Source of the DNA: Enterobacteria phage MED1 | Sequence record: KJ997912.1 | Length of the DNA stretch: 5,386 bases | Reading direction: 5' to 3' (one strand) | Shown here: piece after piece, positions 52-5,386 of the stretch | Layout: each line of letters begins with the position of its first letter | How positions within the stretch are numbered: position 1 is the stretch's first letter | The notes under the pieces: model-generated | Seen by the model: the letters and a program-made list of their open reading frames with translations, nothing else | Databases searched by the model: none | What the model was told of the DNA's origin: nothing | Position numbers and translations under genes: made by a program

Positions 52-136
52 TGAGTCGAAAAATTATCTTGATAAAGCAGGAATTACTACTGCTTGTTTA
101 CGAATTAAATCGAAGTGGACTGCTGGCGGAAAATGA
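1..136 (+). CDS. A: Replication initiator protein A (and A*), C-terminal segment; continuation across the circular junction of the ORF that runs off the window end at 5386 (position 1 is the third base of the junction codon CAG); stop TGA at 134-136
   Basis: Frame continuous with the 3981..5386 ORF when the ends are joined; translation ...[46 protein letters not shown] matches the phiX174 A C-terminus as I recall it; the stop overlaps the gene C start (ATGA at 133-136). Confidence 0.85.
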
Positions 137-221
137 GAAAATTCGACCTATCCTTGCGCAGCTCGAGAAGCTCTTACTTTGCGACCTTTCGCCATCAACT
201 AACGATTCTGTCAAAAACTGA
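51..221 (+). CDS. K: Protein K (56 aa, small nonessential membrane protein), overlapping the end of A and the start of C
   Basis: ATG 51-53 to TGA 219-221; translation [56 protein letters not shown] matches phiX174 K as recalled. Absent from the ORF track, presumably because it is below the length cutoff. Confidence 0.85.
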
Positions 222-393
222 TGCGTTGGATGAGGAGAAGTGGCTCAATATGCTTGGCACGTTCGTTAAGGACTGGTTTAGATATGAGTCACATTTTGTT
301 CACGGTAGAGATTCTCTTGTTGACATTTTAAAAGAGCGCGGATTATTATCTGAATCCGATGTAGTTCAACCATTAATAGGTAAAAAATCATGA
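133..393 (+). CDS. C: Protein C (86 aa; DNA maturation, switch from RF replication to ssDNA synthesis/packaging)
   Basis: ATG 133-135 (ATGA overlap with the A stop) to TGA 391-393 (ATGA overlap with the D start). The ORF track starts at 115, but that codon is GTG; the canonical start is the ATG at 133 ([11 protein letters not shown]...). Confidence 0.9.
320..358 (+). promoter_or_regulatory. Promoter pD (sigma70-type) inside gene C, driving the D-E-J-F-G-H late transcript
   Basis: -35 TTGACA at 320-325, 18-bp spacer, -10 TATTAT at 344-349; expected transcription start about 356-358, consistent with the known pD position in phiX174. Confidence 0.6.
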
Positions 394-2394: not shown

Positions 2395-2922
2395 ATGTTT
2401 CAGACTTTTATTTCTCGCCATAATTCAAACTTTTTTTCTGATAAGCTGGATCTCCGTTCTGTTACTCCAGCTTCTTCAGCACCTGTTTTACAGACACCTA
2501 AAGCTACATCGTCAACGTTATATTTTAATGAGTTGATGGTTAACGCTGGTAATGGTGGTTTTCTTCATTGCATTCAGATGGACACATCTGTCAACGCCGC
2601 TAATCAGGTTGTTTCTGTTGGTGCTGATATTGCTTTTGATGTCGACCCTAAATTTTTTGCCTGTTTGGTTCGCTTTGAGTCTTCTTCGGTTCCGACTACC
2701 CTCCCGACTGCTTATGATGTTTATCCTTTGGATGGTCGCCATGATGGTGGTTATTATACTGTTAAGGATTGCGTGACTATTGACGTTCTTCCCCGTACGC
2801 CGGGCAATAATGTTTATGTTGGTTTCATGGTTTGGTCTAACTTTACCGGTACTAAATGCCGCGGATTGGTTTCGCTGAATCAGGTTATTAAAGAGATTAT
2901 TTGTCTCCAGCCACTTAAGTGA
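2395..2922 (+). CDS. G: Major spike protein G (175 aa)
   Basis: ATG 2395 with AGGAG at 2383-2387; the ORF track's 2350 start is an in-frame upstream extension without an RBS; translation [18 protein letters not shown]... matches phiX174 G with a few substitutions. Confidence 0.95.
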
Positions 2923-2930
2923 GGTGATTT

Positions 2931-3917
2931 ATGTTTGGTGCTATTGCTGGCGGTATTGCTTCCGCTCTTGCTGGCGGCGCCATGTCTAAATTGTTTGGAG
3001 GCGGTCAAAAAGCCGCCTCCGGTGGCATTCAAGGTGATGTGCTTGCTACCGATAACAATACTGTAGGCATGGGTGACGCTGGTATTAAATCTGCCATTCA
3101 AGGCTCTAATGTTCCTAACCCTGATGAGGCCGCCCCTAATTTTGTTTCTGGTGCTATGGCTAAAGCTGGTAAAGGGCTTCTTGAAGGTACGTTGCAGGCT
3201 GGCACTTCTGCCGTTTCTGATAAGTTTCTTGATTTGGTTGGACTTGGTGGCAAGTCTGCCGCTGATAAAGGAAAGGATACTCGTGATTATCTTGCTGCTG
3301 CATTTCCTGAGCTTAACGCTTGGGAGCGTGCTGGTGCTGGTGCTTCCTCTGCTGGTATGGTTGACGCCGGATTTGAGAATCAAAAAGAGCTTACTAAAAT
3401 GCAACTGGACAATCAGAAAGAGATTGCCGAGATGCAAAATGAAACTCAAAAGGAGATTGCTGGCATTCAGTCGGCGACTTCCCGTCAGAATACGAAAGAC
3501 CAAGTATATGCACAAAATGAGATGCTTGCTTATCAACAAAAGGAGTCTACTGCTCGCGTTGCGTCTATTATGGAAAACACCAATCTTTCCAAGCAACAGC
3601 AGGTTTCTGAGATTATGCGCCAGATGCTTATACAGGCTCAAACGGCTGGCCAGTATTTTACTAACGACCAAATCAAAGAGATGACTCGCAAGGTTAGCGC
3701 TGAAGTTGACTTGGTTCATCAACAGACGCAGAATCAGCGGTATGGTTCTTCTCATATTGGTGCTACTGCTAAGGATATTTCTAATGTCGTCACTGATGCT
3801 GCTTCTGGTGTGGTTGATATTTTTCATGGTATTGATAAAGCTGTTGCCGACACTTGGAACAATTTCTGGAAAGACGGTAAAGCTGATGGCATTGGCTCTA
3901 ATTTGTCTAGGAAGTAA
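2931..3917 (+). CDS. H: Minor spike / DNA pilot protein H (328 aa)
   Basis: ORF 2931..3917; RBS GAGGTGA at 2921-2927 overlaps the G stop; Gly-rich N-terminus ([25 protein letters not shown]) and Q/E/K-rich central coiled-coil region typical of phiX174 H. Confidence 0.95.
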
Positions 3918-3926
3918 CCGTCAGGA

Positions 3927-3955
3927 TTGACACCTTTCTAATTGTGTGATTTCAT
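3927..3955 (+). promoter_or_regulatory. Candidate promoter pA in the H-A intergenic region
   Basis: -35 TTGACA at 3927-3932; TG at 3947-3948 followed by a weak -10 TTTCAT at 3950-3955 (extended -10 arrangement, 17-bp spacer). Position agrees with the known pA of phiX174; exact start site not determinable from sequence. Confidence 0.45.
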
Positions 3956-3980
3956 GCCTCCAAACTTTGGAGGCTTTTTT
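3956..3980 (+). terminator. Rho-independent terminator TH: GCCTCCAAA/TTTGGAGGC hairpin followed by a T6 run, immediately before the A start codon
   Basis: Inverted repeat 3956-3964 / 3966-3974, then TTTTTT at 3975-3980; the 3-prime arm contains GGAGG (3969-3973), which also serves as the Shine-Dalgarno sequence of gene A (ATG 3981). Confidence 0.6.
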
Positions 3981-5386
3981 ATGGTTCGTTCGTATTACCC
4001 TTCTGAATGTCACGCTGATTATTTTGACTTTGAGCGTATCGAGGCTCTTAAACCTGCTATCGAGGCCTGTGGCATTTCTACTCTTTCCCAATCTCCGATG
4101 CTTGCCTTCCATAAGCAGATGGATAACCGCATCAAGCTCCTTGAAGAGATTTTGTCATTTCGTATGCAGGGCGTTGAGTTCGATAATGGTGATATGTATG
4201 TCGACGGTCATAAGGCTGCTTCTGATGTTCGTGATGAGTTTGTGTCTGTTACTGAAAAGTTAATGGATGAATTGGCACAATGTTACAACGTGCTCCCCCA
4301 ACTTGATATTAATAACACTATAGACCACCGCCCCGAAGGGGACGAAAAATGGTTTTTAGAGAACGAGAAGACGGTTACGCAGTTTTGCCGTAAGCTGGCT
4401 GCTGAACGCCCTCTTAAGGATATTCGAGATGAGTATAATTACCCCAAAAAGAAAGGTATTAAGGATGAGTGTTCAAGATTGTTGGAGGCCTCCACTATGA
4501 AATCGCGTAGAGGCTTTACTATTCAACGTTTGATGAATGCAATGCGTCAGGCTCACGCTGATGGCTGGTTTATCGTTTTTGACACTCTTACGCTGGCTGA
4601 TGACCGCTTAGAGGCGTTTTATGATAATCCCAATGCTTTGCGTGACTATTTTCGTGATATTGGTCGTATGGTTCTTGCTGCCGAGGGTCGTAAAGCTAAT
4701 GACTCACACGCCGACTGCTATCAGTATTTTTGTGTGCCTGAGTATGGTTCAGCTAATGGCCGTCTTCATTTCCATGCGGTGCATTTTATGCGGACACTTC
4801 CTACAGGTAGCGTTGACCCTAATTTTGGTCGTCGGGTACGCAATCGCCGCCAGTTAAATAGCTTGCAAAACACGTGGCCTTATGGTTACAGTATGCCTAT
4901 CGCAGTTCGCTACACGCAGGACGCTTTTTCACGTTCTGGATGGTTGTGGCCTGTTGATGCTAAAGGTGAGCCGCTTAAAGCTACCAGTTACATGGCTGTT
5001 GGCTTCTATGTGGCTAAATACGTTAACAAAAAGTCAGATATGGACCTTGCCGCTAAAGGTCTAGGAGCTAAAGAATGGAACAACTCACTAAAAACCAAGC
5101 TGTCGCTACTTCCCAAGAAATTATTCAGAATCCGAATGAGCCGCAACTTCGGGATGAAAATGCTCACAATGACCAACCTGTCAATGGAATGCTTAATCCA
5201 GCTTACCAAGCTGGGTTACGACGCGACGCCGTTCAACCAGATATTGAAGCAGAACGCAAAAAGAGAGATGAGATTGAGGCTGGCAAAAGTTACTGTAGCC
5301 GACGTTTTGGCGGCGCAACCTGTGACGACAAATCTGCTCAAATTTATGCGCGCTTCGATAAAAATGATTGGCGTGTCCAACCTGCA
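3981..5386 (+). CDS. A: Replication initiator protein A (HUH rolling-circle endonuclease; 513 aa in total), N-terminal about 468 codons; the ORF runs off the window end and finishes at 1..136
   Basis: ATG 3981 preceded by GGAGG; no in-frame stop to position 5386; HUH motif HFHAVH encoded at 4767-4784; catalytic tyrosine pair in VGFYVAKYVNKK (Tyr codons 5007-5009 and 5019-5021, residues 343 and 347). Confidence 0.95.
   Translation, partial: MVRSYYPSECHADYFDFERIEALKPAIEACGISTLSQSPMLAFHKQMDNRIKLLEEILSFRMQGVEFDNGDMYVDGHKAASDVRDEFVSVTEKLMDELAQCYNVLPQLDINNTIDHRPEGDEKWFLENEKTVTQFCRKLAAERPLKDIRDEYNYPKKKGIKDECSRLLEASTMKSRRGFTIQRLMNAMRQAHADGWFIVFDTLTLADDRLEAFYDNPNALRDYFRDIGRMVLAAEGRKANDSHADCYQYFCVPEYGSANGRLHFHAVHFMRTLPTGSVDPNFGRRVRNRRQLNSLQNTWPYGYSMPIAVRYTQDAFSRSGWLWPVDAKGEPLKATSYMAVGFYVAKYVNKKSDMDLAAKGLGAKEWNNSLKTKLSLLPKKLFRIRMSRNFGMKMLTMTNLSMECLIQLTKLGYDATPFNQILKQNAKREMRLRLAKVTVADVLAAQPVTTNLLKFMRASIKMIGVSNL
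4299..4328 (+). other. Viral-strand origin of replication (30-nt A-protein recognition sequence); nick site between G4305 and A4306
   Basis: CAACTTGATATTAATAACACTATAGACCAC at 4299-4328 is the canonical phiX174 ori, located inside gene A at the same coordinates as in the reference. Confidence 0.85.
4497..5386 (+). CDS. A*: A* protein (341 aa in total): internal in-frame translation initiation within gene A; continues to 1..136
   Basis: In-frame ATG at 4497 preceded by GGAGG at 4484-4488 (8-nt spacing); corresponds to the known A* start of phiX174 (MKSRRGF...). Confidence 0.75.
   Translation, partial: MKSRRGFTIQRLMNAMRQAHADGWFIVFDTLTLADDRLEAFYDNPNALRDYFRDIGRMVLAAEGRKANDSHADCYQYFCVPEYGSANGRLHFHAVHFMRTLPTGSVDPNFGRRVRNRRQLNSLQNTWPYGYSMPIAVRYTQDAFSRSGWLWPVDAKGEPLKATSYMAVGFYVAKYVNKKSDMDLAAKGLGAKEWNNSLKTKLSLLPKKLFRIRMSRNFGMKMLTMTNLSMECLIQLTKLGYDATPFNQILKQNAKREMRLRLAKVTVADVLAAQPVTTNLLKFMRASIKMIGVSNL
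4850..4900 (+). promoter_or_regulatory. Approximate location of promoter pB (inside gene A, upstream of B)
   Basis: Weak sigma70-like elements only (TTGCAA at 4863-4868, then TTACAG/TACAGT around 4886-4892); placed mainly from knowledge that pB lies about 190 nt upstream of B in phiX174. Exact hexamers uncertain. Confidence 0.3.
5075..5386 (+). CDS. B: Internal scaffolding protein B (120 aa in total), embedded in gene A in a different frame; continues at 1..51
   Basis: ATG 5075 with AGGAG at 5063-5067; translation MEQLTKNQAVATSQE... with the conserved C-terminus after the wrap; the N-terminal third carries several substitutions versus the reference as recalled. Confidence 0.9.
   Translation, partial: MEQLTKNQAVATSQEIIQNPNEPQLRDENAHNDQPVNGMLNPAYQAGLRRDAVQPDIEAERKKRDEIEAGKSYCSRRFGGATCDDKSAQIYARFDKNDWRVQPA

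Follow-up and report, generated by a model that had tools for sequence, protein, structure and literature searches.

Gene H of the phiX174-clade microvirus MED1: tube register, peptide repeats and a single replacement in the coiled-coil domain

The DNA pilot protein H of phiX174 (UniProt P03646 family; PDB 4JPP/4JPN, Sun et al. 2014) has been described in detail, and its gene, tube structure, repeat register and delivery role rank with the best-studied features of any phage. The hendecads of its central coiled coil start at residues 151, 162 and 173 (PMC7354561 Table 1), and 18 of the 23 lumen-facing side chains of the tube are Asn, Gln or Arg (PMC7354561), with T244, M251, K254 and E258 forming a conserved non-amide lumen patch. 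The H proteins of G4-like (Gequatrovirus: ID11, ID18, PJNS002) and alpha3-like (Alphatrevirus: WA45) phages have the same domain order. The tube has also been approached genetically. The intragenic suppressor su(H)-H T234I, isolated twice independently, rescued the mutant cs|ts(H)Q241S/Q247S, whose plating at 42 C rose from <2.5e-4 to 0.9 (Roznowski, Fisher & Fane 2020, PMC7354561). Register and lumen chemistry are also treated in PMC4224467 and in a 2026 phiX174 mutagenesis preprint.

Here we analyzed gene H in a 5,386-nt stretch of DNA (the window) that is colinear over its full length with phiX174-clade microviruses and carries 11/11 phiX174 genes, all intact at canonical coordinates. Sanger phiX174 (J02482) is 96.0% identical to the window (215 differences, 0 indels), laboratory phiX174 isolates are ~96.1% identical, and the top match in the phage collection is Salmonella phage PJNS001 (96.6% identity). 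The H, F and G proteins correspond residue for residue to AII27901.1, AII27899.1 and AII27900.1 of Enterobacteria phage MED1, a phage that a literature search found mentioned in no paper. For MED1, our analysis establishes the identity of the gene, the register of the tube, its periodicities, purifying selection and a single T234I change within the coiled-coil domain.

Gene H and its tube domain

The open reading frame (ORF) at 2931-3917 is almost certainly the H gene of a naturally occurring microvirus in the phiX174 clade, and its product the DNA pilot protein. Its surroundings are those of the Bullavirinae, i.e., a genome of ~5.4 kb in which H comes after G (ending at 2922) and before A (starting at 3981) on the same strand, and phiX174 records annotate H at identical coordinates. 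The protein matches Pfam PF04687 Microvir_H (E=2.5e-214) from residue 18 to 327 over profile positions 1-310 of 310, scoring 710.8 bits for a cut-off of 22.7 bits. Upstream of the start codon, the Shine-Dalgarno-like sequence overlaps the G stop codon (TGA, 2920-2922); the end of gene G at 2922 is annotated in relatives. Nothing in the sequence is contrary to the assignment. The features of the gene are collected in Table 1.

Table 1. Features of gene H and its upstream region (positions in the window)
Feature	Residues	Coordinates	Strand	Basis or remark
Shine-Dalgarno-like GAGGTGAT		2921..2928	+	read from sequence; ends 2 nt before H ATG
Gene H, DNA pilot / minor spike protein	328 aa	2931..3917	+	ORF, ATG start, TAA stop
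Gly/Ala/Ser-rich, moderately hydrophobic segment	aa 1-32	2931..3026	+	G+A+S 66%
Three tandem 4-codon units IAGG / IASA / LAGG	aa 5-16	2943..2978	+	TRF 2942-2977
Equivalent of crystallised H-tube construct	aa 143-282	3357..3776	+	phmmer vs PDB 4JPP_A, E=1.4e-79
Hendecads 1-3, 11/3 periodicity, right-handed supercoil	aa 151-183	3381..3479	+	PMC7354561 Table 1; PMC4224467 (handedness)
Transition segment, helical, kinked	aa 184-194	3480..3512	+	PMC7354561 Table 1; identical peptide in window
Heptads 1-11, 7/2 periodicity, left-handed supercoil	aa 195-271	3513..3743	+	PMC7354561 Table 1
Codon 234 ATA (Ile) vs phiX174 ACT (Thr), position 5 of heptad 6	aa 234	3630..3632	+	two-nucleotide change
C-terminal domain	aa 272-328	3744..3914	+	strong amphipathic-helix signal; 4JPP coverage ends aa 282

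MED1 H has the length, genome position and flanking genes of phiX174 H, and shares with it the N-terminal 32 residues, the C-terminal 57 residues and the hendecad/transition/heptad register. Across the crystallised construct, 139 of 140 residues are identical to 4JPP_A ("Minor spike protein H"), with I234 instead of T as the sole difference, and the published register of three hendecads, a kinked transition and 11 heptads is matched residue for residue save at that position. All the residues named as lumen facing (Q241, T244, Q247, M251, K254, E258 and Q265) are unchanged. The assignment of this region to the H decameric coiled-coil DNA-delivery tube, made in an earlier note on this DNA, is thus borne out by the Pfam match, the crystallised construct and the register. 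So is its description of the central region as rich in Q, E and K, which make up 16.8%, 9.7% and 8.0% of aa 151-263 versus 1.9%, 2.4% and 6.8% of the rest of H. Similarly, Q+N+R account for 30% of aa 151-271 versus 9% elsewhere in the protein.

In the G4-like and alpha3-like H proteins (57-81% identity), the (A/S)LAGG N terminus is retained, and so are all three hendecads, the segment with the kink and the majority of the heptads. Conservation across the phiX174, G4 and alpha3 clades extends to the hendecads and most heptad "a" positions, and the 14 extra residues of the G4-like proteins, inserted after heptad 10, amount to exactly two heptads. The C-terminal domain, for which a membrane-anchor role has been proposed (PMC4224467), has a hydrophobicity period of 3.5 (z=6.8, p=0.0006), a G+A+S content of 35% and 0 amino-acid changes with respect to Sanger phiX174. 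Single-sequence AlphaFold2 prediction of full-length H was too poor for use (mean pLDDT 48.6, pTM 0.20).

From the phiX174 literature and the 99% identity between both proteins, we infer that in MED1, too, H forms a decameric tube, lets the DNA pass and is anchored in membranes. In such a scheme, ~10-12 copies of H would be packaged per virion and, once the virion has attached to LPS, a set of ten would come together by way of the central helix (aa 151-271) as an alpha-helical barrel of 170 Angstrom. The three hendecads of the N-terminal half of the helix would form its right-handed part and the eleven heptads of the C-terminal half its left-handed part, with the kink between. The circular ssDNA would cross the periplasm through this tube, whose lining would consist mostly of Gln, Asn and Arg, so that the two antiparallel strands of the genome would be conducted past amide and guanidinium groups; drag of the lumen on the DNA is a proposal of the phiX174 H-tube authors. 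The Gly/Ala/Ser-rich segments at both ends would anchor the tube in membranes. One preprint argues that the in vivo tube model rests mainly on in vitro data and reports that no tunnel was seen for a distant microvirus, a caveat that concerns the field and not MED1 gene H.

The glycine-rich N terminus

The N-terminal peptide of H had been quoted exactly in the earlier note and described as having glycine-zipper-like spacing, a label that suits one part of the pattern. Glycines occupy residues 3, 7, 8, 15, 16, 23, 24, 25, 31 and 32, and form GG doublets at 7-8, 15-16, 23-24 and 31-32. The real period is therefore 8, with six G pairs at lag 8 versus 2.2 expected (p=0.0015) and a BLOSUM lag 8 z of 3.9. 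G4-like and alpha3-like proteins retain the first three doublets but not the fourth. At the spacing of a zipper, G/A/S pairs at i,i+4 within aa 1-32 show no excess (13 observed versus 12.2 expected, p=0.41), and one G pair at lag 4 was observed versus 2.6 expected. This spacing stays at composition level because two-thirds of the segment consists of small residues.

Kim et al. 2005 reportedly define the glycine zipper as (G,A,S)xxxGxxxG or GxxxGxxx(G,S,T). The sole G-x3-G pair of the segment, G3/G7, runs on to S11 and provides one literal motif of this kind. The "zipper-like" core, G7-S11-G15 and G8-A12-G16, lies within the three tandem 4-codon units, for which TRF gives a period of 12 nt, 3.0 copies and 70% matches; the repeat search also shows the 12-nt spacing. 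MED1 H thus has in common with transmembrane glycine zippers the G3-x3-G7-x3-S11 motif and the small faces G3/G7/S11/G15/S19 and A4/G8/A12/G16, and differs from them in having one G-x3-G pair, a dominant period of 8 and hydropathy below the usual threshold. The 19-residue Kyte-Doolittle mean of aa 1-19, the maximum in H, is 1.40, below the classic value of 1.6 for a transmembrane helix.

The pattern of glycines is part of a helix face of small residues within the first ~20 residues. "Glycine-zipper-like" is a fair qualitative label for this face (residues 3-19), the zipper itself being putative. Residues 1-32 are a proposed membrane-inserting or helix-packing segment, and the membrane-anchor role of the N terminus is likewise a proposal only (PMC4224467).

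Divergence from phiX174 and residue 234

Purifying selection on H is strong. Between MED1 and Sanger phiX174, H differs at 34 nucleotides in 33 codons, 29 of which are synonymous (30 synonymous nucleotide differences), leaving 324 of 328 residues identical and a dN/dS of 0.036; for aa 151-271, with 18 of 19 changed codons synonymous, the ratio falls to 0.010. The four replacements are S70N, L99F, D137G and T234I. G137 also occurs in aligned relatives outside the phiX174 laboratory lineage. L99F maps to the N-terminal domain, outside the crystallised construct, and the F99 peptide had no perfect match among the 169 phage records holding the segment.

T234I is the sole amino-acid change in the coiled-coil domain, turning RQMLTQA into RQMLIQA exactly one heptad upstream of the lumen-facing Q241. 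It is possible, though on balance doubtful, that this replacement is functionally significant, i.e., that it stabilises or alters the tube near heptads 6-7, for example in high-temperature channel formation, and that tube properties differ from those of phiX174. In its favour, residue, replacement and heptad are the same as in the published suppressor with its twice-independent origin and rescue at 42 C. Threonine is moreover conserved at this position in the aligned phiX174, G4-like and alpha3-like proteins (five of six other aligned H proteins, from all three Bullavirinae clades; Ala takes its place in Mimer, a distant Pectobacterium phage), and two of the three codon positions have changed (ACT>ATA). 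The Ile234 peptide had no perfect match among the 543 phage records with the segment, and a degenerate DNA pattern for MRQMLIQA returned 0 hits in the IMG/VR and JGI metagenomes, where the Thr-version control recovered six viral contigs. Against such significance, T234I is one replacement, conservative in size, and the natural isolate that carries it is viable. The suppressor arose in the Q241S/Q247S mutant, whereas Ile234 of MED1 is natural and accompanies wild-type Q241/Q247, a background in which no phenotype is known for it. The size and shape of the suppressor residues also followed no clear pattern according to the authors (PMC7354561).

The earlier note had rightly placed several substitutions in the central region, and had suggested that they may bear on host range or DNA ejection. 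We consider it very improbable that the coiled-coil substitutions as a group are adaptive in this sense. The density of differences from Sanger phiX174 is indeed higher here, with 20 of the 34 nucleotide differences of H falling inside 3381-3743, and a 2026 phiX174 mutational scan (doi 10.64898/2026.07.25.740675) places H among the proteins with beneficial mutations. However, the coiled-coil changes are nearly all silent, with T234I as the only one to reach the protein, and the group as such can therefore have no bearing on host range or DNA ejection. None of the named lumen-facing residues is affected, and host recognition in these phages is ascribed to LPS binding by G and F rather than to the H tube.

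The distribution of silent changes points to mosaic ancestry instead. Synonymous divergence from Sanger phiX174 rises from 0.044 (aa 1-150) to 0.254 (aa 151-271) per site (Fisher p=5e-5), whereas divergence from ID34 is equal in the two parts (0.18 versus 0.20 per site). Since the central excess is seen against Sanger-type genomes and vanishes against ID34, it reflects ancestry, not selection. Synonymous-site constraint in the N-terminal half of H was rejected, as this half shows normal divergence from ID34.

Repeats and periodicities in the coiled-coil coding region

The two quoted 11-mers taken as imperfect direct repeats are both present, 1-2 nt off the positions first given for them: AAAGAGATTGC at 3417-3427 and AAGGAGATTGC at 3450-3460. 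They encode the QKEIA that opens hendecads 2 and 3. Their spacing of 33 nt, or 11 codons, is that of the hendecads at 3381-3479 and not heptad-like, as had been supposed. Over this stretch, DNA autocorrelation at lag 33 reaches 65% matches (z=5.8), a value attained by 0 of 2000 codon shuffles, and protein BLOSUM autocorrelation at lag 11 (aa 151-194) gives z=6.6. The period of Q/N/R in the hendecads is 3.70 (11/3 = 3.67; p=0.003).

These figures might be taken for a feature of the DNA itself, for instance a tandem duplication of recent origin, a tract of gene conversion, a hotspot of recombination or an array bound by protein, within 3380-3720. The high significance of the 33-nt periodicity against codon shuffles and the three in-register copies that the repeat search finds at 3381, 3414 and 3447 would suit such readings, which we nevertheless find hardly credible. 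Re-encoding the three hendecad peptides with H codon usage predicts a summed pairwise nucleotide identity of 63.4 +/- 2.9 among the three units, where 63 was observed (p=0.60). The peptides and H codon usage account for the observed identity, and the 33-nt DNA repeat is therefore a shadow of the peptide repeat. The codon is shared at just 9 of 16 positions with identical residues, TRF does not call the 33-nt array even at score 30, and near-identical 11-mer pairs within 3380-3720 are not enriched (3 observed versus 1.6 expected, p=0.23). Synonymous sites of this region are also free to diverge among relatives (0.20-0.25 per site). The two 11-mers are identical in Sanger phiX174, and the copy in the window is "imperfect" because of one synonymous change, K174 AAA>AAG. 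Recent duplication and a DNA-level repeat were thus rejected by the codon-resampling test; as the nucleotide shadow of three hendecads, the 33-nt repeat holds no DNA-level information beyond the peptide repeat and is not to be taken for an element of its own.

The self-repeat signal expected across 3380-3720 divides accordingly. Above-chance repetition is confined to the hendecad stretch, whereas autocorrelation reveals no 21-nt DNA periodicity in the heptad part (3513-3743), where lag-7 sequence similarity is not significant either. Coiled-coil character was assessed by Fourier and autocorrelation analysis. In aa 195-271, the best Q/N/R period is 7.25 (p=0.014 at 7) and hydrophobicity peaks at periods 7 and ~3.7, and the 3.5-residue hydrophobic period of classical heptad coiled coils is absent (z=-0.9), as would fit a barrel whose lumen-facing "core" positions are polar (Q/N/R). 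This segment is a coiled coil by crystallography, yet a non-classical one. A standard coiled-coil predictor may therefore under-call the region and is a poor test for the polar-lumen barrel of H.

A further reading of the coding sequence, that the 315-codon minus-strand ORF at 2880-3827, in codon register with H, is a real antisense gene constraining H codons, has practically no chance of being right: the absence of TTA, CTA and TCA from window H (5.8 predicted by genome codon usage, P(0)=0.002, a post hoc value) and the stop-free antisense run of 346 codons speak for it, but two ordinary synonymous changes (S184 TCA>TCC and L261 TTA>TTG) opened a frame that is broken in Sanger phiX174, ID34 and PJNS001 (1-2 such codons, run 199) and far shorter in other clades (run 79-148 codons), all annotated phiX174 genes lie on the + strand, and a synthesis study reports that phiX174 needs no conserved ORF beyond the annotated ones (PMC6883844).

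To conclude, outside correct annotation the significance of this analysis of H is small. That the natural T234I measurably changes H-tube behaviour, e.g., through sturdier high-temperature channel formation or altered DNA-delivery kinetics, is a tentative proposal that we regard as rather unlikely to hold. If true, T234I would be a natural example of DNA-conduit tuning, and it is possibly a cheap and well-motivated mutant for studies of H-tube stability.

Divergence among genes and ancestry of H

Protein-level differences between MED1 and its relatives concentrate in G, E, and, against phiX174 only, B, and not in H. Gene G carries 7-12 replacements in 175 amino acids, which cluster at residues 19-21 and 43-49. 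Should any genome difference bear on host range, a likelier site for it would be the spike protein, G. In genes B and K, MED1 matches PJNS001 exactly, and gene F diverges by 4-5% from each of three comparators.

Comparison of gene H with its counterparts in the three comparators (L010, L003, and L002) showed that synonymous divergence from Sanger phiX174 is 0.044 per site over amino acids 1-150, about sixfold below the 0.254 per site of the coiled-coil part (amino acids 151-271; Fisher p = 5e-5), whereas divergence from ID34 is even between the two segments. This pattern suggests a mosaic or recombinant ancestry inside H.

Coordinates of the features discussed in MED1 (KJ997912.1)
Feature	Position	Strand	Remark
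Gene C	133-393		86 codons
Gene G	2395-2922
ATG ORF	2880-3827	minus	315 codons; antisense to H, sharing its codon register
Gene H	2931-3917	plus	328 amino acids
H amino acids 272-328	3744-3914
Terminator-like hairpin GCCTCCAAACTTTGGAGGC	3956-3974		between H (end 3917) and A (start 3981); followed by TTTTTT
Gene B	5075-51

Reading frames and the H-A intergenic region

The minus-strand ORF is open because MED1 H lacks TTA, CTA, and TCA codons (0 observed versus 5.8 expected from genome codon usage; post-hoc P = 0.002). The stop-free run spans 346 codons in MED1; the same frame is interrupted in Sanger phiX174, ID34, and PJNS001, where the run is 199 codons, and in other clades it reaches 79-148 codons. 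Most likely, this ORF is not a gene.

Downstream of H, the start codon of gene A directly follows the T run of the GCCTCCAAACTTTGGAGGC hairpin, which was the only strong terminator-like site in a scan of positions 2800-4100. In the Sanger phiX174 record, position 3962 is marked as a transcription start. Gene C keeps its full length in MED1, Sanger phiX174, and ID34; in the laboratory isolate EF380009 a stop occurs at codon 79, and a shorter C (133-369) is annotated.

C-terminal domain and repeat modules of H

The C-terminal residues 272-328 of H, unchanged in amino acid sequence from phiX174, display a hydrophobic periodicity of 3.5 residues (z = 6.8, p = 0.0006) stronger than that of any part of the crystallized coiled coil. 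This signal suggests that the domain, which lies largely beyond the solved structure, may form an amphipathic or heptad-type helix.

MED1 H was also aligned with H loci of more distant relatives (alignment A1; L004:11-1036, L005:64-1074, L006:70-1080, and L009:123-1193), and the length differences between clades proved to be whole repeat units. Relative to MED1, G4-like H proteins bear a 14-residue insertion, i.e., two heptads, after heptad 10, and that of Pectobacterium phage Mimer bears an 11-residue insertion, i.e., one hendecad, after hendecad 3. Such stepwise changes imply, as read from the aligned sequences, that the same modules would build tubes differing in length between clades.
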